DNA of 64,000 bases. It comes from a phage. The notes below the pieces were generated by a model that was given only the letters and a program-made list of their open reading frames with translations, searched no databases and had not been told where the DNA came from. Each line of letters opens with the position of its first letter. Position 1 is the stretch's first letter. The stretch lies in the sequence record PZ445432.1; one strand, 5' to 3'. This document shows, piece by piece, positions 5,796-61,470 of this stretch. Both the position numbers and the translations under genes were made by a program.

Positions 5796-7258
5796 ATATC
5801 GCTGGCCTGTTCACCTGTTGAATTTTCAGTTTTATCTTTCTTAGCACGTTTAGATTGAGCTGGCTTATCCTTTTCAATAGGGATAATGAACTCAGCTTCC
5901 ATTTGAGATATATCTTCCATTGCTAGGTTGGTAGTGTTATCCATCCGCAGAGTTTCCCAGTTCATCTTAGGCATAAACTTCACGCTACCAGAAGAACGGG
6001 TCTTAACGAAGTCAAACATAATAGCACCTTGACCATTATCAGCTTTTGCAGCATTAAGATTAGCAGCCATGTCTGCGGAATCAAGAATCCCCTTTGACAT
6101 ACGTGTTCTACCATCTTGATCGATCTGGTAAGGAGCTACGCCAGCCACGTTATGTTTCTGGCAGATAGATTTGAAAGACGAGCTAACAACCATCTGTTCT
6201 TTCCAGTCATACATATCAATGGTTTTAGAATCTGGAAGTCGGGTTTGGTTAATATAGTCAAGTAAAGCTACTGTAACCTTATCCCCATATCTAGCAACTA
6301 ATTTATTTAACTCTACGTCAACTGTTGTAATAGACAGCTCAGGGTCATAAACAATAATCATAGGAGTATGTAGCTCATATCCTTCTATTAGCTTACTTTC
6401 CATATCGTAGAAATCACTCATCTTAGCCATTGTGTACTGTTTAACGAAGTTATCGAAAAGCTCTTCACCACCATTAAACATTCTAGCTCTAGTTCTGGCT
6501 AATCTCAACAGAGCTGCACCTTCTAGAGTATTATTACGCATTGCTAATGCTGATACACCAGCTAACATGGCTAGATTACGTCTAAATACTTCATGTTCTT
6601 TCATCTCAATTGAGAAGTATGGAGCAATATCCCCATTCAAATATTGCTGAACCTGTATGTTTGAACAGATAATGGATTTACCAGTACCACGCCAACCACC
6701 AAGCAGTAACGTTTCTGTGCGAGCTAAACCAATTTGAGCGTCGAACTCATTACAAATACCAAGAGCGATTAAATTCAGTTTGGTATCTTCTTCTCTCTGG
6801 AAAATACGCATGTTATCTGCGTTGAATACTTTCCCAGTATTCGTTACTTTCTCTTCTAATTTTAAGTGAAGGGAGGCAACTCGGTTAAGAATTTCTCCCT
6901 GATCCAGCATTGTTAAATCTTGAAGCACGTCTGTTTCTAGAAGCTTCAGGAATAAATCCTGTGTATACTCGGCCTCTAGGACTTCAAGTGCCTGTTCCAT
7001 GCTAACTTCTGGAATTTGAGTGTTAGCTAAAACGACTAGAGCTTGAGAAAGGCGGGCGTTCCTATTAGCCTCAAGCATCAGTGCGTCAATGGACGGCATT
7101 GTGTTATATTTTTTATAATAATTCTGGACGGCTTGGTAAATTGAGGAGAAAGCGTCATTAAAATGATCTTTATGCAGTTTTGAGAATGTTTCCAATGCTA
7201 TTTGCTTCTGTTCGGAAGCTAGAAGCATCTTCAACACTACAGCTTGCACGTTAAACAT
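5792..7258 (-). CDS. DnaB-like replicative helicase / RecA-fold ATPase
   Basis: 488-aa ORF with Walker A GGWRGTGKS; translationally coupled to the primase ORF. Confidence 0.65.
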   Translation of the reverse strand: MFNVQAVVLKMLLASEQKQIALETFSKLHKDHFNDAFSSIYQAVQNYYKKYNTMPSIDALMLEANRNARLSQALVVLANTQIPEVSMEQALEVLEAEYTQDLFLKLLETDVLQDLTMLDQGEILNRVASLHLKLEEKVTNTGKVFNADNMRIFQREEDTKLNLIALGICNEFDAQIGLARTETLLLGGWRGTGKSIICSNIQVQQYLNGDIAPYFSIEMKEHEVFRRNLAMLAGVSALAMRNNTLEGAALLRLARTRARMFNGGEELFDNFVKQYTMAKMSDFYDMESKLIEGYELHTPMIIVYDPELSITTVDVELNKLVARYGDKVTVALLDYINQTRLPDSKTIDMYDWKEQMVVSSSFKSICQKHNVAGVAPYQIDQDGRTRMSKGILDSADMAANLNAAKADNGQGAIMFDFVKTRSSGSVKFMPKMNWETLRMDNTTNLAMEDISQMEAEFIIPIEKDKPAQSKRAKKDKTENSTGEQASDI

Positions 7259-8659: not shown

Positions 8660-9434
8660 TATTATTTTTCTCCAATAGTTCTTTAATCGACAGGATTTCT
8701 ATCCCATTCGTTTCGGCTTTCTTATAAGATGAGGAAGAACGCTTCGATTCATCCTCACAGATTAGGTATTTGACGTCTTTGGTAACGGATTTCTTAACCG
8801 TATATCCTAGACCTTCTAAATAGTTTGTTGCATCCGTTCTATTTGCAAAATCTTGCAAAGATCCGGTAATACATACCGCGATTCCATTTGGCTGGGCAGC
8901 TAATTCATCCGTAGTGATAATATTAGCTTTAGTGCCCTTAATACCAGTTGAGAATTTCCACGGTAGTTCGATAACATCCTTGCCTTGTGGGGAATTTAGC
9001 CAGGCTTTGTAATTTTCTCCAGCCTTGCCGTCAGCCTTCACATCATGGAAGCTAGTGCAATTTTGGGATAATTTCTTTGCTGCAACCTCTCCAATTAGAG
9101 GGATTCCTAAAGAACCGAGAACTGAACCAAAGTCAATGTCTCCGCGAACTTTAGTATTTAATTCGCTAGTTAACTTAGCGGCAACCTTGCTACCCACGGC
9201 TCTAACCAAATCTTCTTCGGTTAGGTAAAATAGTTCTGAAATCTTCGTCAGCTCCAGCTTCTCAATAGTTTTTGGGCCAAAGCCCTTTAACTTCATTTTT
9301 GAACAGAAGTTCTCAATTAACTTGCTTGATTGCGCTGGACAGTTGGACTTATTACGACAGAATAATTGTCCGTTGACAAGATCTAGCTTAGAACCACAAG
9401 AGGGACATTGTGTTGGAATTTCGATTTTCATCAA
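8652..9434 (-). CDS. ligB: NAD-dependent DNA ligase, C-terminal subunit (Zn finger, HhH, BRCT)
   Basis: CPSCGS ... C ... CPAQ zinc-finger pattern typical of LigA, HhH-like region, BRCT-like AVCITGSL. Confidence 0.8.
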   Translation of the reverse strand: MMKIEIPTQCPSCGSKLDLVNGQLFCRNKSNCPAQSSKLIENFCSKMKLKGFGPKTIEKLELTKISELFYLTEEDLVRAVGSKVAAKLTSELNTKVRGDIDFGSVLGSLGIPLIGEVAAKKLSQNCTSFHDVKADGKAGENYKAWLNSPQGKDVIELPWKFSTGIKGTKANIITTDELAAQPNGIAVCITGSLQDFANRTDATNYLEGLGYTVKKSVTKDVKYLICEDESKRSSSSYKKAETNGIEILSIKELLEKNNNV

Positions 9435-9461
9435 ATTTCTTCCTTATCAATTTATATAAAT

Positions 9462-9490
9462 ATTATAGCAAGTATTTAAGCATTTAGCAA
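9462..9490 (-). promoter_or_regulatory. sigma70-like promoter between the two ligase ORFs
   Basis: Reverse complement gives TTGCTA, 17 nt, TATAAT, followed by the leader cassette. Confidence 0.5.
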
Positions 9491-9633
9491 CTACAATTTT
9501 AATTAACTTTGCTTACCCTCGCCATAACTTTCTATCCCTCAACTGAATGATAATAGTATATACCTAAGCGGCGAAAATGTCAATAACCACTTTATAATTC
9601 CGATATGGTAGATGGGTAGCAAAGGGTTATGTA

Positions 9634-10605
9634 TTAATCGTATACTCGCTCTACTATGCACGGGATTACACCACCAGCACGAATCACTCGAATCTGGCAA
9701 CCGATCTCTAGATCGAGAGAGTTAATATAATCAACGTTATTAAGAGTTGCTTTAACAATTGTAGCATCATCAATAATTACCGGTTCAAAATAACCAACTG
9801 GAGTTACTTTACCCGAAGCCCCCACCTGCCATTCAACTTTAGTAAGAGTTGTAATCTCGCCTTCTTCATCCTCTTTAATAGCGAATGCTCCACGAGGGAA
9901 TTTATTAGTCCAGCCTTCACGGAAGAATTTGTTGTTATCATTAATACGAACAACTTTACCGTCCGTCGGAATCCATTTAAAGAAGGAACGCACATTAACA
10001 ACTGTTAAGAAGTTCTCATTCTCCAGCCAAAGCATATCTTTTAAGTATGATTCTGTAATACCTACAGATTCAGCAGAACACTGGATACCATATGCAACGA
10101 AGATTAAACCACCTTCCCCAATGCGTTGTACGAAATCATCACTATCTTTGAGGTTAATAGCACCAGAGGCAAAGTTACGTTTATTTTCTACTTCTTTTGT
10201 AATTAGAACTTCACCAGTTATTTGAGTAGGTACTTTTTGGGAAATCTTTTTAGGAATATTCAGCAATCTTACGTTGCTTGTGACATCATTCCCTAGAATA
10301 CCGTTACCACGAGTTAGTGCTTGAACAAATTCGCCGTTAATATACAGCAGAGAAATTGCACAACCATCTAACTTATCGGTTTCCACCTGACCTAAAGGAT
10401 TGAATGGTGGTTTATCACCACGGTTATAGTAAACTTTCTGTAAAGAATACATACGATATAGATGTGGAATATCACCCTTAGGCCCGATCTCTTCCTCTAA
10501 TGGGAAGCGTTTTACCAGACGATCATATTCTTCATCAGAGATTAAAGACATTCCCTGGTAATATGCTTCTTGGCAACGTTTAATAAAGTCTTTTACATTA
10601 GTCAT
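9634..10605 (-). CDS. ligA: NAD-dependent DNA ligase, N-terminal adenylation/OB subunit
   Basis: KLDG adenylation motif (KLDGCAISLLY) and an OB-fold-like C-terminus (IRVIRAGGVIP). Confidence 0.8.
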   Translation of the reverse strand: MTNVKDFIKRCQEAYYQGMSLISDEEYDRLVKRFPLEEEIGPKGDIPHLYRMYSLQKVYYNRGDKPPFNPLGQVETDKLDGCAISLLYINGEFVQALTRGNGILGNDVTSNVRLLNIPKKISQKVPTQITGEVLITKEVENKRNFASGAINLKDSDDFVQRIGEGGLIFVAYGIQCSAESVGITESYLKDMLWLENENFLTVVNVRSFFKWIPTDGKVVRINDNNKFFREGWTNKFPRGAFAIKEDEEGEITTLTKVEWQVGASGKVTPVGYFEPVIIDDATIVKATLNNVDYINSLDLEIGCQIRVIRAGGVIPCIVERVYD

Positions 10606-10878
10606 TTATTCTGCCTCATAGTACGTGGGTTGTCTGGTAGATCCGTGCCACGTATAATTTTTGCAAAGATGCAAATATGTAGTTTTTACTAGCCTATCCG
10701 ATAATGGAGAGTATATTTCAGCTATTAATACTTCTTTTTCGTAATAAAGTGAAATCAGTTTATACCCAGCTCTAGTTTTAGTATACTTTTCCCCATTAAT
10801 CTTTTCCTCCCACATGAGTATGAGAGGCTGTCCGATATATGGAAAAGGTTTAAGTGTACTTATATGTATCTTTTTCAC
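10606..10878 (-). CDS. hypothetical protein
   Basis: 90-aa ORF immediately upstream of, and co-directional with, the ligase adenylation ORF. Confidence 0.45.
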   Translation of the reverse strand: MKKIHISTLKPFPYIGQPLILMWEEKINGEKYTKTRAGYKLISLYYEKEVLIAEIYSPLSDRLVKTTYLHLCKNYTWHGSTRQPTYYEAE

Positions 10879-10908
10879 TTTGCAACCCTCTCATTAATTT
10901 ATATAAAT

Positions 10909-10937
10909 ATTATATAACAAAACTGAGTTGAAAGCAA
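10909..10937 (-). promoter_or_regulatory. sigma70-like promoter
   Basis: Reverse complement gives TTGCTT, 17 nt, TATAAT, then the ATAAATTAATGAGAGG leader. Confidence 0.5.
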
Positions 10938-16195: not shown

Positions 16196-16791
16196 AACAA
16201 TACTCCTGTGTTGGAAATGAAATAAGTTTTCTTTAGGACTATTCAGAAAGAATAGAACAACTGTTACTGTCAATTTCTCAACAATTAATCGCAAATACTG
16301 AAGTGGGGTGGCAACTTCCACTTTCACGCTGCGCTGCTGCCTCATTATACCGCACAAATCCTTGAGGATGGCCGCTAAGCCGGATTTGCTCACCTAATGC
16401 TTCATATACTAGCTCATACTAGATGCAATATAACTTACAGAATCACGTCTCGGTAGTTTTTCACTCCTCCCATCTCACTTCACAACCACCTCATACTAGG
16501 TTGCTTCGAGGCCTTACCAGGGTTCCTATGGGACGCAGATCGCTAAGTATTCTATTAACTATTTGTTTAAAAACTAACACGTAACAGTTAAAACAACCCT
16601 TAATGGGGCAGCCTAACTGTTCCGTATCGCGGATTGTAAACAAGAAAAAACTTTTTCGTAAAGCTCTAGCAACGTACCTTATGCAGCTATTTACGGGTCA
16701 TCGATTCCTCTCGCCGTAAATCCATTGTCAGCTTCACTAAGAAAAATTAGCAAAATCAATTTTTACTAATGTCTCTCAATTCAATATAAAT

Positions 16792-28276: not shown

Positions 28277-29115
28277 TGCAACAATACTTAAAAATTTTGA
28301 CAGATGTAATTTTACTAGGTGAACCCCGTAATGACCGTACAGGAACAGGCACAGTTTCAATTTTTGATTCCTATGCTAAGTTCGATCTACGTGAGGGATT
28401 CCCTGCCGTAACCACTAAACGTCTAGCCTGGAAATCAGTAGTAGGAGAACTTTTATGGTTCTTGTCTGGTTCCACAAATCTTCATGATCTACGTGTATTC
28501 ACATTTGGGCGTGACGAAGGACAGTGGACCATCTGGACTCCAAATTATGAAGACCAAGCTATAAGTATGGGGTATGATAAGGGTAATCTAGGACCGGTAT
28601 ATGGTAAACAGTGGCGTAACTTTGGTGGGCGAGATCAGATTCTAGAACTTATTGAAGGACTCAAGAATAATCCTCATGGCCGCAGACATCTAGTTTCTGC
28701 ATGGAACGTAGCTGAACTTGATAAAATGGCATTACCGCCCTGCCACTACGGCTTCCAGTGCTATGTAAGTAACGATGGATACCTAGATCTTAAATGGACA
28801 CAACGTTCTGTAGATTGTTTCCTCGGTTTACCCTTCAATATTGCTAGTTATGCTTTATTAACGCATATATTAGCAAAACTGACAGGATTAAAACCTCGTT
28901 ATCTCATCTTTAGTGGTGGAGATACTCATATCTATAATGACCACATGGAACAGGTAGAAGAACAGGTAAAACGCAAGCCACGCCCTCTACCAACTCTAGT
29001 AATGCCAGAGTTTGTAGATCTTTACGATTTATTAGAAAATAATACGGCAGCTTGGTCCTTCCAGCTTGAAGGATATGATCCGCATCCGGCTCTTAAAGCT
29101 AAAATGTCTTCCTAA
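28276..29115 (+). CDS. thyA: thymidylate synthase
   Basis: Active-site PPCHYGFQCYV and a DRTGTGT-type N-terminal motif. Confidence 0.9.
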   Translation: MQQYLKILTDVILLGEPRNDRTGTGTVSIFDSYAKFDLREGFPAVTTKRLAWKSVVGELLWFLSGSTNLHDLRVFTFGRDEGQWTIWTPNYEDQAISMGYDKGNLGPVYGKQWRNFGGRDQILELIEGLKNNPHGRRHLVSAWNVAELDKMALPPCHYGFQCYVSNDGYLDLKWTQRSVDCFLGLPFNIASYALLTHILAKLTGLKPRYLIFSGGDTHIYNDHMEQVEEQVKRKPRPLPTLVMPEFVDLYDLLENNTAAWSFQLEGYDPHPALKAKMSS

Positions 29116-29208: not shown

Positions 29209-29490
29209 ATGATTTCAGCCAAAGAAGCTCAAGAACTTGCAGGATTAACAGAAGTACCCGCATTCCTAAAGTTTATAGAAGAAAAGATTGTAGAAGCTGC
29301 TAAGTCTGGAAATACAGAAGTAATTATTCGAGATAATCCTTACGCTAGGTGGCTATATAATCCTAGAGAAATGCCAGGAGCAGCTAAATCGGTACTAAAA
29401 ACCTTATCGGATAAGGGGTATCACCTCTCACAATACTACCGAGAAGCCGCCTTTGTAGACATGGGTCTTAAAATTAGTTGGGAGGTATAA
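29209..29490 (+). CDS. hypothetical protein
   Basis: 93-aa ORF with RBS GGAGG upstream. Confidence 0.5.
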   Translation: MISAKEAQELAGLTEVPAFLKFIEEKIVEAAKSGNTEVIIRDNPYARWLYNPREMPGAAKSVLKTLSDKGYHLSQYYREAAFVDMGLKISWEV

Positions 29491-37616: not shown

Positions 37617-37639
37617 TAGTTACACGTAATCTTCGAAGT

Positions 37640-37680
37640 AAGCCCTGTGTTCCCTGGAGAGCGCAGGGCTTTTCTGTTTT
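37640..37680 (+). terminator. rho-independent terminator
   Basis: AGCCCTG ... CAGGGCT hairpin followed by TTTTCTGTTTT. Confidence 0.55.
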
Positions 37681-46995: not shown

Positions 46996-47747
46996 TGTCA
47001 GTATTAGTAGGTTTACATGGCGAGGCAGGTGCAGGAAAAGATACCGTTGCAAAATTAATTATCGATTGGTGTAATGACACGTATCCAACGTGTTTACCAC
47101 GTCGTTACAGTTTTGCTAAACCAGTTTATGAGCTTGCATCCGTAATCCTCGGGGTAACTCCAGAGTTTCTAGGAGAGCGCAGGGGAAAAGAAATTGACCA
47201 ATGGTTTACGGTCACACAATCTCAATTGGAGCGAGCTAGAGACGTATGGTTTAAATATGGTATCGATAAGTTTGAAGACTTCTCGTACGTTTGGCCGATT
47301 TTTGAGGAAAAATATCTTAATCCTCAACAACTTATCTCAGAGAATAAAGAAGACGGACTTTATAGTTTATTTATTTCTCCGAGAAAAATGTTACAGCTCG
47401 TAGGAACAGAGCTAGGAAGGCAGCTGGTACATGAACGCATTTGGCTCATAATTCTGGAGCAATCCATCGCTAAAGACGACCCAGATGTCGCCGTAATAAC
47501 AGATGTGAGATTCCCCAATGAAGGAGAGTTACTCAGAGAAACGAACCATTTAGATATGGATTCTTTACTAATAAATGTAGTGCCCGCTGAGCAGAAGTTC
47601 ACTATTAAATCAGATCATCCATCTGAAAGTGGTATTCCTACAAAATATATCACTCACGAATTAGTTAATAAATTCGATGGTATCAATAACCTTAAACTAG
47701 AAGTGTATAACTTCTGTGACTTAGAGCTAGAACCACTAGTTGGATAA
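46995..47747 (+). CDS. dnk: deoxynucleoside monophosphate kinase
   Basis: N-terminal P-loop GLHGEAGAGKDT in a 250-aa ORF; family assignment is an inference. Confidence 0.6.
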   Translation: MSVLVGLHGEAGAGKDTVAKLIIDWCNDTYPTCLPRRYSFAKPVYELASVILGVTPEFLGERRGKEIDQWFTVTQSQLERARDVWFKYGIDKFEDFSYVWPIFEEKYLNPQQLISENKEDGLYSLFISPRKMLQLVGTELGRQLVHERIWLIILEQSIAKDDPDVAVITDVRFPNEGELLRETNHLDMDSLLINVVPAEQKFTIKSDHPSESGIPTKYITHELVNKFDGINNLKLEVYNFCDLELEPLVG

Positions 47748-58119: not shown

Positions 58120-58727
58120 TGTTTACACAACAACCTATTCAAGTAGTACCAGATCATGAACTGAATACATGGGATTATAGCTTTAAAGATTTAACTGCTA
58201 CTGTACAATTCAAATCTATGAAGCTAACCTTTGCACACACTAATATTAAAGCATGTAAAGATTTTGAAGGTAGGCTCAACAACGCTCGTAAGATTTTTGG
58301 TACGGCTCGGATTCCAGCTGATAACCTTATTAACGCATTAATAGATGCGGGCTATAAACTCGTGAAGGCTGAGGTGAACCGCCCTAGTACTCCAGTAACT
58401 GTTAGTGATCCGTGGCAGTCAGGGCCAATTATAAGGTGGAACAGTCCTAAAATAACGTCGGATTTGCACAATGTTCCATGCGGTGGTGCGCTGTCGTCTA
58501 ATCAGTCCTATCGAGTTGGGGAAGATTATGGGCCTTCTGCACAGTTGAAACATACTCAAGAAGCTTTTGAATCTGACATGAAAAGCGTAGCACCTGCAGA
58601 TGCTGGAGTTTCTAGGAGTTCTGTTTGTACTATTCATTTTAATAATCCTAGTAAACATGGAAGTCTAGAAGATGCTATTATGGGGGCGTTGGGAGCTGCT
58701 CTTAATGAAGATAAGAGAGGTAATTAA
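58119..58727 (+). CDS. hypothetical protein
   Basis: 202-aa ORF. Confidence 0.45.
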   Translation: MFTQQPIQVVPDHELNTWDYSFKDLTATVQFKSMKLTFAHTNIKACKDFEGRLNNARKIFGTARIPADNLINALIDAGYKLVKAEVNRPSTPVTVSDPWQSGPIIRWNSPKITSDLHNVPCGGALSSNQSYRVGEDYGPSAQLKHTQEAFESDMKSVAPADAGVSRSSVCTIHFNNPSKHGSLEDAIMGALGAALNEDKRGN

Positions 58728-59452
58728 TGAGTATTAAAAAGAATTTAGCAGAGATTATTAAATTAGCTAGAGCTTGTAATGGAAAATGTGTTTCTCAACT
58801 TAATGAACTAGAGGCACATGCAGTAGCGTTTTGTGCAGAGTTTTATCCTGCATATATTAACGCTAGTGGACAGCCGAAATATAATAAAGATGCAGAAGAA
58901 GTTACGTTAGCTCCTTCGTATATTAGTATACGTCGTCTGATTCAAACTGTTGACCCTAATATTAAAGGATTTTCAGCAGATTCATTCCATGTTTTTGCGG
59001 ATAAAGAACTCCCACATTTTAAAGAAGGAAGTGCAAAGACAGCCCTAGAATGTTATCCTAATATTTTGATGATTCCACCTAAGCAATGTAAGTATGATCA
59101 TCTTCCTAGACTTACAAAGAAAGTAGAACCACCTTATTCTTCTCTATCTGAATTAAAGCTAGGAATTGTATCTACACTTGCGCAGGTTCATCTAAGTATA
59201 GTTGACGACTCAACAACATCTAATCCAGTCTTAGATGCTGCACATTATGAAATTTTACGTGACCCTGAACAGGCTAGAAAAGTTGCGAAGTCTGTTAAGT
59301 TTGACATCTCAACAATTCTTGATACGATGCAAGATACGAGACCTAGAGGAAGTGTAGATTATTCTGCGCTAAATTCCGAGTCATCTTACCTAGCAACATT
59401 CCTTTTCATGGCATCGAAGGGAATCATACTCAAAGTCAATCACGATGTATAA
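58727..59452 (+). CDS. hypothetical protein
   Basis: 241-aa ORF; last plus-strand gene before the repeat-rich region. Confidence 0.45.
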   Translation: MSIKKNLAEIIKLARACNGKCVSQLNELEAHAVAFCAEFYPAYINASGQPKYNKDAEEVTLAPSYISIRRLIQTVDPNIKGFSADSFHVFADKELPHFKEGSAKTALECYPNILMIPPKQCKYDHLPRLTKKVEPPYSSLSELKLGIVSTLAQVHLSIVDDSTTSNPVLDAAHYEILRDPEQARKVAKSVKFDISTILDTMQDTRPRGSVDYSALNSESSYLATFLFMASKGIILKVNHDV

Positions 59453-59468
59453 ACGTTAACAAAATCTT

Positions 59469-59497
59469 CTTGACATTATTTGAGCTGTATGTTATAA
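59469..59497 (+). promoter_or_regulatory. consensus sigma70 promoter (TTGACA-17-TATAAT) facing the ORF-free repeat region
   Basis: Exact TTGACA at 59469-59474 and TATAAT at 59492-59497 with a 17-nt spacer. Confidence 0.6.
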
Positions 59498-59852
59498 TAA
59501 TCTCATAGATTAAAAACATCAACTTGTTTTTACCTCTAGGCCGTAGATTTACATCATTCCTCGTAGGAAAACACTTGATGACGGTTCTGTTCGCAGGTTC
59601 TCGTCAATTGTTCTTCCTCCCCGAGACTCAGGAGGATGTATCAAATCGCACGCGCCTAGAGGGGCTAACTCTCATGAAATGGGGGTATATTAACTTTTAA
59701 ATAACTGATAAATATTTAAAGGCAATATCTGTGTTCAAGATGATACACCTGTTGCCGCTCATCTGCTAGGATGGCACAACACTTTCTTCTAGACTCCTAA
59801 GTTTCTAGGAAATTGATAAGCACAAATTCTAGAGATCGCACAAAAATATTCA

Positions 59853-60631
59853 TCGGATTTGCACATATTCTAGGAAATTGATAAGTACAAAAATATTCAT
59901 CGGATTTGCACATATTCTAGGGCAGTTTCTCTCAAACGTTACACATACTAGGCGGTTAATATAGGGCGGTTATAGGGAGGGCGGTTATTTCTAGGAGACA
60001 TTTTTTGAAAACACATTTCTGGATTTTACTGTCGGATTTGCACACTGCATTTCTAGAAATTTATGGTCGGATTTGCACAAACGCCTAAGTTTTTAGGAAC
60101 ATATAATCTCTTGAAAATGGCAGCATTATTTCGGGCCGAAGGCCCATGATTGCCTGAGTTTTTAGAGCCACAGGAATTTTCACTTGTCAAGCTATTTTGC
60201 CCCATTTTGCTAATAAAATTTTACTTTTTCTGCACCTATCTCAAATTTCCCCAAATTATCTCAACTCTTCCCCAAAACCCCGCAAATCAGGTGCTCCGCA
60301 CCAATCCTGCGCCCACACCATTCTAGCCTCCCAAATTTCTCTCGCTCTCTCATCTTCTCCTCAAACCTATACAATCACACACCCTCTCATCGAAGTCACA
60401 AAAATTTCATCGGATTCGCACAAATAAACCCATGTCGGATTTGCACATATTCTAGCTAATTCCACAGGATTGATGCGCAGCATCGGATTGCTGGAGTTTT
60501 TGGGAAAATTCGTCGTCGGATTCGCACATCACAAAAGTTTTTAGGGTCGGATTTGCACACTACCAAAAATTGTCGGATTCGCACATACACGCCCGCACGT
60601 AACACCCGTGGAGCAATGTCGGATTTGCACA
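59853..60631. repeat. dispersed array of about 10 copies of TCGGATT(T/C)GCACA
   Basis: Copies start near 59853, 59900, 60032, 60067, 60410, 60435, 60516, 60547, 60573 and 60619, all in the same orientation, often followed by ATATTCTAG. Confidence 0.7.
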
Positions 60632-60636
60632 AAAGC

Positions 60637-60654
60637 GCAGGGCAATTGCCCTGC
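60637..60654. repeat. 18-bp perfect palindrome GCAGGGCAATTGCCCTGC
   Basis: Read directly; could act as an operator or form a hairpin. Confidence 0.6.
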
Positions 60655-60661
60655 GACTTTG

Positions 60662-60680
60662 AATGAGAATCATTATCATT
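60662..60680. repeat. 19-bp near-palindrome AATGAGAATCATTATCATT (left boundary element)
   Basis: Near-identical palindrome recurs at 61216-61234, so the pair brackets the iteron/DnaA/LexA block. Confidence 0.55.
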
Positions 60681-60891
60681 TAAGAAGTGGAATGCAAATG
60701 ATAATTATTCTCATTTAAGAAGTGGAATGATTCTCATTTAATAAGTGGAATGCAAATGATAATTATTCTCATTTAAGAAGTGGAATGAGAACTATTCAAG
60801 AAGTGAAACGATTCTCATTAAAGAAGCGAAACGATTCTCATCCTAGAAAGGGAATGCAAATGATAATGATTCTCATTTAAAAACGGAAGTG
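60676..60891. repeat. iteron-like direct repeats (about 8 copies of a 21-bp unit TCTCATTTAAGAAGTGGAATG)
   Basis: Copies start near 60676, 60709, 60732, 60767, 60792, 60813, 60836 and 60871; some are separated by CAAATGATAATTAT spacers. Confidence 0.7.
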
Positions 60892-60910
60892 AGAAACACT
60901 GTTATTTAAG

Positions 60911-60992
60911 TTATCCACAGACTTATTAACAGCACGATTTGACTTGACAGAATCCTAGCCATTTTGAGGCGTTATCCACAGACTTATCCACA
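60911..60992. promoter_or_regulatory. three consensus DnaA boxes (TTATCCACA)
   Basis: Exact TTATCCACA at 60911-60919, 60972-60980 and 60984-60992, all in the same orientation. Confidence 0.65.
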
Positions 60993-61000
60993 GCTTATTC

Positions 61001-61020
61001 TACTGTATAAATATACAGTA
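61001..61020. promoter_or_regulatory. LexA/SOS-box-like palindrome TACTGTATAAATATACAGTA
   Basis: Matches CTGT-N8-ACAG with flanking TA; 20-bp palindrome immediately after the DnaA boxes. Confidence 0.55.
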
Positions 61021-61215
61021 TTCCTACGCAGTGAATAATTCTAATATAGGCCTAAAACGTCCTGAATCGCATTCTAGCGCGTTTTATTTTGGCGGGGATA
61101 CTAAAACAAGGGCAAAACTGGAGGAGGCTTAGAAATTAGTTAGCTCGCTAACGATCACACAAGGCGACACGTAACACCCTAATCATTAGCAGGCTAACCA
61201 TCGCGGGCGCGGTCA

Positions 61216-61234
61216 AATGAGAATCATTCTCATT
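61216..61234. repeat. 19-bp perfect palindrome AATGAGAATCATTCTCATT (right boundary element)
   Basis: Partner of the 60662-60680 element. Confidence 0.55.
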
Positions 61235-61275
61235 TGAGGATTGGGGGCACTTCCTGATAATTGCCCCCGTGATTA

Positions 61276-61470
61276 TTAGTCCGGTAATTGATGCGTGATC
61301 TTCTCCTCTTCCCCGTAGGAATCGACTAAATGCTGATAATAACCATCATGATCATAAATGACTTTATCATATTCGCCCAGCTCGACCGCTTGCCGGTTTT
61401 CCGGAGTATCGGGCACATAAAAAACGTCAACCATTGTGGTAGTTTTGGTCACAATAATTTTATCGCTCAT
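61276..61470 (-). CDS. hypothetical protein
   Basis: 64-aa acidic ORF; first of a minus-strand block with a shared upstream motif. Confidence 0.4.
   Translation of the reverse strand: MSDKIIVTKTTTMVDVFYVPDTPENRQAVELGEYDKVIYDHDGYYQHLVDSYGEEEKITHQLPD

Follow-up and report, generated by a model that had tools for sequence, protein, structure and literature searches.

The window, a stretch of 64,000 nucleotides, carries a region that is 100% identical to Escherichia phage HildyBeyeler (Bas33, MZ501074.1), a T5-like Tequintavirus, and that is matched by about 450 T5-like phages. A plasmid collection searched with the region returned 0 matches, and the idea of a plasmid or prophage origin was dropped. 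Window positions equal record positions minus 37523, and the + strand of the window is the minus strand of the standard T5 map. Features of T5 were carried onto the window by pairwise alignment.

The locus is a non-coding gap between convergent gene blocks, with early genes on the + strand ending at 59452 and the pre-early genes of the terminal repeat, on the − strand, lying beyond. T5 records annotate here an injection stop signal (iss, 9140–10149), which aligns to 60235–61284 of the window, a major single-chain interruption of the DNA (9748/9749), and, with position 10219, the point where the left terminal repeat ends. T5 DNA enters the cell in two steps, by a mechanism still called poorly understood in papers of 2026, and the two sides of the nick are named below after the first and the second step. 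The features of the region, in window coordinates, are as follows.

58458–58470, + strand: an eleventh, exact copy of the 13-mer, on the sense strand of bas33_0166 (T5.019 homolog)
59453–61275, no strand: non-coding gap of 1.8 kb between the convergent gene blocks, homologous to T5 9157–10936
59470–59498, + strand: consensus sigma-70 promoter, TTGACA-17-TATAAT with TG (12/12), directed at the array
59853, 59900, 60032, 60067, 60410, 60435, 60516, 60547, 60573 and 60619, + strand: starts of the ten array 13-mers, 13 nt each
59853–60079, + strand: outer cluster, the first four of these 13-mers (59853, 59900, 60032, 60067), in unique DNA directly outside the terminal repeat
59948–59995, no strand: repeat GGGCGGTTAT, three times, conserved, on the second-step side of the nick
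60164/60165, no strand: predicted inner end of the terminal repeat, from T5 10219|10220, the repeat being coordinates from 60165 upward
60190–60400, + strand: spacer separating the clusters, rich in C and poor in G (GC skew −0.55 to −0.75), holding the repeat end
60410–60631, + strand: inner cluster, the other six 13-mers (60410, 60435, 60516, 60547, 60573, 60619), between the terminal-repeat end and the major nick and inside the iss as annotated in T5
60483–60489, + strand: truncated half-copy, TCGGATT followed by GCTGG, amid the inner-cluster copies
60598–60641, + strand: bipartite nick signal CGTAAC-N31-GCGCAGG, with the nick predicted at A60634/G60635, equivalent to the T5 7.9%/99.6% major interruption 9748/9749
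60636–60655, − strand: palindrome CGCAGGGCAATTGCCCTGCG followed by a T-run, terminator-like for transcripts exiting the terminal repeat and overlapping the nick site
60650–60880, + strand: long direct repeats, probably T5 'DRE', with Fur-box-like sequences, on the first-step side of the nick
60911–61020, + strand: three consensus DnaA boxes TTATCCACA (60911, 60972, 60984) and a LexA-box-like palindrome (61001–61020), equivalent to T5 IRD'spacerIRC'

The gap contains ten 13-mers in one orientation, all on the + strand and exactly where the preliminary description had placed them. Their start-to-start distances are 47, 132, 35, 343, 25, 81, 31, 26 and 46 bp; the earlier figure of 25–380 bp was roughly right, the measured range being 25–343 bp. 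A tail, ATATTCTAG, had been described as often following the motif, but it follows only three of the ten copies. With the copy in bas33_0166, TCGGATTYGCACA occurs 11 times exactly in the window and on one strand (+) only, against 0.01 expected from shuffles, and the full 111.6-kb HildyBeyeler genome still holds just these 11, besides a near-copy pair in its D13-type nuclease gene. The preliminary description had named two grounds for refutation, a genome-wide frequency no higher than expected and a lack of positional conservation in relatives, and neither was found: the count of the motif is far above expectation, and its position is kept as far as Vibrio phages. Allowing up to 2 mismatches gives 2 matches outside the cluster in the window where about 1.7 are expected, and TCGGATT alone, expected about 3.9 times per strand, occurs 3–4 times outside the region. 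The additional matches described, near 16381 (2 mismatches) and about 408 (TCGGATT on the minus strand at 390), are no more than chance would give.

A weight-matrix scan of T5 from 6.5 to 111.5 kb found 12 sites of at least 19 bits, all of them on the nicked strand, with the next best site at 12 bits. There is no 13-mer site in the interior of the terminal repeat (about 9.7 kb) of T5 and HildyBeyeler, and no copies lie near the left genome end. The behaviour of the 13-mers is that of a DNA motif under selection and strictly polar in strand, and the repeats of the array are untranslated. The earlier statement that no ORF matches them holds for the ten copies, save for an annotated 50-aa ORF, probably spurious, that overlaps one.

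No known site had been recognized in the preliminary description, but the motif does correspond to one. Judged by copy count and coordinates, the 13-mers are very probably the 'DRD' direct repeats of the T5-type non-coding injection-stop/terminal-repeat boundary. Nine DRD copies were described in T5 Repeat Region 3, at 9194–10409 of AY587007, a region found conserved in 25 T5-like phages and reaching 270 bp past the repeat end (Davison, bioRxiv 10.1101/866236). The T5 gap holds exactly nine 13-mers, at 9752–10489 of AY543070, with spacings of 46/26/31/81/25/344/35/137; read in T5 order, those of HildyBeyeler are 46/26/31/81/25/343/35/132/47. The outermost T5 copy ends at 10489 in AY543070, which with the 80-bp offset is 10409 in AY587007, the stated edge of Repeat Region 3. 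The T5 and HildyBeyeler arrays share genome position, strand and conserved spacing, as well as their neighbours: the DRE repeats, the paired DnaA boxes in IRD'spacerIRC' and the major nick. They differ in having nine and ten copies, respectively, the first two outer copies of HildyBeyeler lying within a 47-bp tandem duplication; T5, without the duplication, has three outer copies. The DRD repeats of the T5 iss region were reportedly also listed by Wang et al. in 2005 and by Davison in 2015. The feature has thus been described before as an element of T5-like phage sequence. The 13-mer string itself was not found in the searchable literature, where only miR-19b papers matched, and neither Davison nor the papers of 2026 give the repeats a function.

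If mapped from T5 10219, the predicted repeat end separates the four outer from the six inner copies. The sequence records place this end at several positions. It is 10,219 bp in the T5 Moscow record, SPC35 and MM-2, the latter two with the same junction sequence as T5; in the chee158 record the boundary is 36 bp outside the inner cluster; and in the T5 Paris-Orsay record (AY692264) and BF23 the repeat ends at the nick. Among close relatives, conservation within the region is highest in the spacer around the junction (60190–60400), in an alignment that has little power because the non-coding block is 80–98% conserved throughout. No cut-site motif common to both terminal-repeat boundaries was seen.

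At its other edge the array stops 3 nt 5′ of the 7.9% major nick, in both T5 and HildyBeyeler, and it extends only toward second-step DNA; the copy at 60619 sits within the spacer of the nick signal. The host-factor-like sites (DnaA, LexA-like, Fur-like) are all on the first-step side of the nick and the 13-mers on the opposite side. The LexA-like box is a 19/20 match, the sole one in the window, and is kept from T5 to Vibrio phages; it is not mentioned by Davison. The 59470 promoter is found at the same place in T5, KEY, KPN4, Proteus phage 2, Chester, SPC35, chee158 and MM-2, making nine phages with HildyBeyeler. Pfam and PHROGs scans of the flanking ORFs gave no DNA-binding domain matches.

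Further copies lie within genes 1.4–4 kb beyond the array in T5, HildyBeyeler and KEY, the density dropping with distance from the first 780 bp, which hold ten copies. Across 21 sequences, all four third-codon positions within the bas33_0166 copy are invariant or nearly so, whereas just 22% of the other third positions of the gene are fully conserved and the codons directly downstream vary synonymously. The only variants within this copy, TCGGATATGCACA and TCGGAAATGCACA, are those of the non-coding array of a Klebsiella phage. The antisense pair in the D13 gene shares its strand with the 64.8% nick, from which it is about 360 nt away in the 5′ direction, and is kept in T5, HildyBeyeler and two Epseptimaviruses. 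A Klebsiella relative has the D13 nick signal and no D13 pair.

A search of IMG/VR with a two-copy pattern found 43 loci, all on T5-like contigs of about 104–123 kb and always in one orientation. Where a contig has both terminal repeats, its terminal repeat copy carries the inner cluster alone, and such contigs mostly end about 245 bp past this cluster, others ending at 38, 157 or 279 bp. Loci in more distant relatives were found with A1 as an anchor, and all the relatives so examined have a gap of 1.8–2.4 kb in the same place. Erwinia phage KEY carries the identical motif eight times in its gap and has three in-gene copies, Klebsiella KPN4 has TCGGAWWTGCACA six times, and Vibrio phage Chester, whose A1 is 34% identical, has TMGRATTTGCACY seven or eight times in an array ending beside GCGCAGG. 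Proteus phage 2 and Aeromonas AhSzq-1 have one degenerate copy only, directly before a nick-like site; a degenerate copy stands at this nick-adjacent place in KEY and Chester as well. Proteus phage 2 also has a different multi-copy array. In the Proteus phage the protein may be present with a changed specificity instead of being lost. In the array-bearing Erwinia, Klebsiella and Vibrio relatives A1 is only 34–74% identical, and such breadth across relatives with diverged A1 fits a conserved phage protein. Most likely, the 13-mers form a polar array at which a phage protein binds.

Several more familiar identities can be set aside. The 13-mer is not the nick recognition site: the four major T5 nicks share Pu|GCGCRGG with YGTAAY about 30 nt upstream, and only the terminal-repeat nick has the 13-mer. 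The pattern YGTAAY-N26-34-GCGCRGG has exactly four matches in HildyBeyeler, on one strand, all homologs of mapped T5 nicks, and a 13-mer overlaps just one of these matches. GCGC is missing from the 13-mer, no 13-mer lies near two of the four major nicks, and the Klebsiella phage keeps its D13 nick signal without the pair. Nor is it a DnaA box (TT(A/T)TNCACA): ATTTGCACA matches at 8/9 positions and ATTCGCACA at 7/9, the first base is always mismatched, the invariant TCGG falls outside the box, and the Vibrio variant ends in C, losing the last A, while true TTATCCACA boxes stand nearby. The poor DnaA-box match noted in the preliminary description was borne out. No promoter-like sigma-70 site overlaps any copy, the sole strong one being at 59470–59498, and matches to Rfam families are all far below threshold. 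Of the roles originally offered, a DNA-binding, packaging or injection signal is in line with an array that lies at the boundary of first- and second-step DNA and flanks the predicted repeat end; a nicking site is not, as nicking has its separate bipartite signal.

For the protein that may bind the array, we tentatively favour the packaging machinery: the 13-mers may be co-oriented candidate binding sites for a phage-encoded, sequence-specific DNA-binding protein of packaging and nicking, a proposal that we regard as possible. The terminase small subunit (bas33_0001) would be the first candidate binder, perhaps with the nickase (bas33_0003), whose gene stands between those for terminase and portal. 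In the concatemers formed by replication, the two clusters would flank the cut for the right genome end, marking the cut site and giving the direction of packaging in a manner resembling P1 pac or lambda cosB. Since the left end of T5 is injected first, packaging should begin with the right end. In that case the motor would run 5′ to 3′ on the nicked strand, encountering first the 13-mers and next the terminal-repeat nick signal, a course that would explain both the strand common to 13-mers and nicks and the ending of the array exactly at a nick.

Several observations are consistent with this proposal. The predicted T5 repeat end (10219, corresponding to 60165) falls between the clusters, in agreement with the SPC35 and MM-2 junctions; the array abuts one nick and the D13 pair precedes another, with all sites on the nicked strand; a nicking endonuclease gene is annotated between the terminase and portal genes; and the two-copy pattern is confined to T5-like contigs of about 104–123 kb in IMG/VR. 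Others argue against it. Were the repeat to end at the nick, as in AY692264 and BF23, the array would not flank the cut, and the left genome end has no 13-mer in its vicinity. Terminase recognition sites commonly, though not always, lie within or next to the genes for the enzyme; here these genes are over 13 kb off, with terS/terL at record 1–1799, the array at record 97376–98154 and the whole terminal repeat between them. A small terminase forming a ring might prefer a regular spacing, which the array does not have. Proteus and Aeromonas relatives, which possess a terminase and terminal repeats, show only one degenerate copy, two of the four major nicks lack a 13-mer, and the D13 nick signal persists without the pair in the Klebsiella relative. 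The three GGGCGGTTAT repeats (59948–59995) are equally well placed as a candidate terminase site, and the only published role of the region is in DNA injection. Apart from the PHROG labels, Pfam and PHROGs scans of the small terminase, the nickase and A2 yielded nothing informative in the way of DNA-binding domains, and literature searches on T5 terminase signals and the nickase found nothing specific.

Injection itself offers two other readings. According to one, which we rank just after packaging as possible but somewhat doubtful, the array is a restart handle for second-step transfer: a pre-early protein (A2, perhaps with A1) made during the pause would bind the 13-mers, the first DNA out after the stop, and ratchet or pull the genome in. 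The confinement of the 13-mers to the second-step side with falling density is best explained in this way. The array starts at the nick, which is the first-step boundary, and runs only into second-step DNA, thinning with distance; no copies are found in the roughly 9.7 kb already in the cell; and the inner cluster is inside the annotated iss. The gathering of host-factor-like sites on the first-step side suggests a two-part layout, and second-step transfer cannot do without A2, a protein classed as DNA-binding. However, the divergence of A2 simply follows phylogeny and does not tell phages with the array from those without it, and A2 is equally present in the array-less Proteus and Aeromonas phages. 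A ratchet does not need strict polarity, which extends to the D13 pair at a distance of 69 kb; a second inner cluster stands at the right genome end, where nothing restarts; and the sites may still be outside the cytoplasm at the pause. Alternatively, the array could be part of the injection stop, with a pre-existing host or virion factor on it halting entry at 8%, the general view that the literature takes of the iss repeats. The T5 iss annotation (9140–10149) takes in the inner cluster, reviews regard all conserved repeats of the region as candidates, and the array length of about 740–780 bp is, by rough estimate, that of the DNA filling the tail and envelope path at the pause. We consider this unlikely. 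Ejection in vitro with purified receptor runs to completion, which counts against a virion plug, and the annotated iss does not include the outer cluster or the in-gene copies. The motif is also no DnaA box (invariant TCGG outside the box, mismatch at position 1, Vibrio variant ending in C). Davison (bioRxiv 10.1101/866236) also has the shear point to the left of the array, at about 9618, with IRD'spacerIRC' and DRE as the favoured iss.

The motif could instead act in RNA, the array being transcribed from the 59470 promoter or by read-through from the early operon and serving, for example, as sites that titrate an RNA-binding protein. The motif-strand sigma-70 promoter is conserved in nine phages, no strong + strand terminator precedes 60478, the ten array copies, the bas33_0166 copy and the in-gene copies of KEY are all on the sense strand of the promoter and early genes, and each motif contains GGA. 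This is nonetheless quite unlikely: the D13 pair is antisense to its gene, the inner cluster lies past a hairpin and the repeat end, placement next to a nick is a feature of DNA, no consistent local hairpin presents the motif, and no Rfam family matches. An origin of replication, in which the 13-mers would be iterons whose bound protein recruits the strand-displacing T5 polymerase to the nick 3′-OH, copying the terminal repeat or starting replication, is improbable. Direct repeats by a site-specific nick with DnaA boxes nearby do resemble iteron or rolling-circle origins, the 3′-OH of the nick is on the 13-mer-bearing strand and points into the repeat, and the T5 record notes strand displacement from nicks by the polymerase. 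Against this, nickless T5 mutants are viable, and the scanned flanking ORFs include no adjacent initiator gene. Origins are mapped near the genome centre, with replication genes silent in first-step transfer (Davison, bioRxiv 10.1101/866236). The copies might also add weak boxes to the DnaA cluster of the iss, given that ATTTGCACA matches the relaxed consensus TTWTNCACA at 8/9 and genuine boxes are 280–370 bp off. We hold this to be very improbable, as the C variant reaches just 7/9, the invariant TCGG falls outside, Vibrio phage Chester has ...GCACC although its own DnaA boxes are perfect, and Klebsiella variants freely change box positions 2–3. Our provisional suggestion is that the array may be a cis element by which a phage protein grips T5 DNA at the repeat boundary, polar, genome-wide and co-oriented with the nicks, and that it would serve either as a pac-like signal that also places the 7.9%/99.6% nick or as an A2/A1 restart handle.

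In P1 pac and lambda cosB/cosQ, terminase recognition repeats flank or adjoin the cut and their polarity directs packaging; cosQ acts on the translocating terminase just before the nick. Like the array, these elements have several short repeats on both sides of, or beside, the site of the mature end. In the array, by contrast, about 330 bp separate the clusters and the whole covers about 780 bp, terminase genes do not lie alongside and the position of the cut is disputed; the array also lacks the methylation sites of P1 pac. T7 has arrays of short co-oriented repeats at its terminal-repetition boundary, and its concatemer junction probably holds one repeat copy. The T7 repeats are tandem and have no known associated nick, and their motif and size differ from those of the 13-mer array. 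Iterons of rolling-circle origins and oriT resemble the array as direct repeats for an initiator or accessory protein beside a strand-specific nick, whereas the T5 nicks are made in mature DNA and ligatable, and other T5 nicks have no repeats. We know of no relaxase or Rep protein in a T5-type system. Strict co-orientation of all copies, far ones included, is a property shared with Chi (RecBCD) and KOPS (FtsK); in contrast to these, the 13-mer has 12–13 copies per genome, nearly all in one 780-bp stretch rather than dispersed.

How T5 DNA entry stops at 8% and restarts has been a question since the 1960s, and the making of the 10-kb repeats and of the strand-specific nicks is a question too. 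The repeats are not new, but the anatomy described here provides a testable object: a sharp 13-bp site, with a polarity common to the nicks, found on the second-step side only. The outer cluster, being single-copy, can be mutated without touching the duplicated repeat. The natural variants in Klebsiella and Vibrio phages and the near-absence of the motif in Proteus and Aeromonas phages can serve for comparison. Public nanopore long-read (PRJEB103991) and RNA-seq (PRJEB101990) data exist for Bas33 itself.

Pattern search of the whole HildyBeyeler genome with the bipartite signal YGTAAY-N26-34-GCGCRGG returned exactly four matches, all on one strand. These sites are the homologs of the mapped major nicks of T5 at 32.6%, 18.5%, 7.9% and 64.8%, and the annotated nick consensus, NPu|GCGCN, lacks the upstream YGTAAY element.

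37625-37667, 47141-47183 and 60598-60641 (window, + strand) and 29286-29327 (HildyBeyeler record, L006): nick-signal sites
28932-28959 (L006) and 78935-78962 (T5): adjacent near-copies of the 13-mer, TCGGATTTGCACC and TAGGATTTGCACA, antisense within the D13 nuclease gene

The near-copy pair in D13 lies on the nicked strand, approximately 354-377 nt 5′ of the 64.8% nick. It is conserved in both Tequintavirus and Epseptimavirus; the one Sugarlandvirus examined lacks it.

The public records of T5, BF23, chee158, SPC35, MM-2 and Chester do not agree on where the inner terminal-repeat end lies. The T5 Moscow, SPC35 and MM-2 records share a junction approximately 245 bp beyond the inner 13-mer cluster, the chee158 record places the repeat end 36 bp before that cluster, and the T5 Paris-Orsay (9,749 bp), BF23 (9,743 bp, PhageTerm) and Chester records place it at or near the nick. 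This disagreement suggests that in some records the nick was mistaken for the terminal-repeat end.

Several further elements surround the predicted repeat end.

59948-59995: three co-oriented GGGCGGTTAT-type repeats, between outer 13-mer copies
60053-60205, - strand: annotated CDS bas33_0168 (50 aa), which overlaps one of the 13-mers, a hairpin and the predicted repeat end
60190-60400, + strand: C-rich, nearly G-free tract of 210 bp, with GC skew down to -0.75

The GGGCGGTTAT-type repeats are a candidate for a further protein-binding element at the repeat boundary; they are conserved in KEY, KPN4, MM-2 and chee158, and Proteus phage 2 retains a single copy. The C-rich tract is located just inside the predicted repeat end; Chester carries a homologous tract, and in Proteus phage 2 a portion of it, CCATTCTATTA, is amplified approximately tenfold. 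The overlapping CDS bas33_0168, for which the T5 annotation shows no equivalent, is probably not a real gene.

The gap containing the 13-mers is regarded as untranslated, and a predicted promoter is directed into it, with a predicted transcript start at approximately 59505.

59470-59498, + strand: predicted sigma-70 promoter, a perfect consensus match (TTGACA-17-TATAAT) plus an extended -10 TG
~59675-59705: conserved G5...TATAT...TAAAA element

This promoter occupies the equivalent position in T5, KEY, KPN4, Proteus phage 2, Chester, SPC35, chee158 and MM-2, and the T5 records do not annotate it. For approximately 170 nt 3′ of the promoter the sequence is wholly different from lineage to lineage, after which the G5...TATAT...TAAAA element is conserved.

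Beyond the 7.9% nick, regulator-like boxes are found.

60659-60880: Fur-box-like sequences, several matching at 15/19, inside the long repeats that separate the nick from the DnaA boxes
61001-61020: LexA (SOS) box-like site TACTGTATAAATATACAGTA, matching the consensus at 19/20
6549-6645 (Vibrio phage Chester record, L054): six copies of AGACTTCTA, directly after a nick-like site

The LexA-like box, the sole match of at least 16/20 in the 64-kb window, adjoins the paired DnaA boxes. It is kept in T5, KEY (two copies), KPN4, Proteus phage 2 (two copies) and Chester, and is not mentioned in Davison's paper on the injection stop signal.

The majority of Fur-box matches of at least 14/19 in the window fall within 60659-60880, and boxes of a similar kind are present in T5, KEY, Proteus phage 2 and AhSzq-1. 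FhuA, the receptor of T5, is Fur-regulated. Chester has no Fur-like boxes of this kind; its AGACTTCTA repeats occupy the place held by the Fur-like repeats in the E. coli phages, and some copies are arranged in tandem as AGACTTCTAGACTTCT, similar to tandem MetJ boxes (AGACGTCT).
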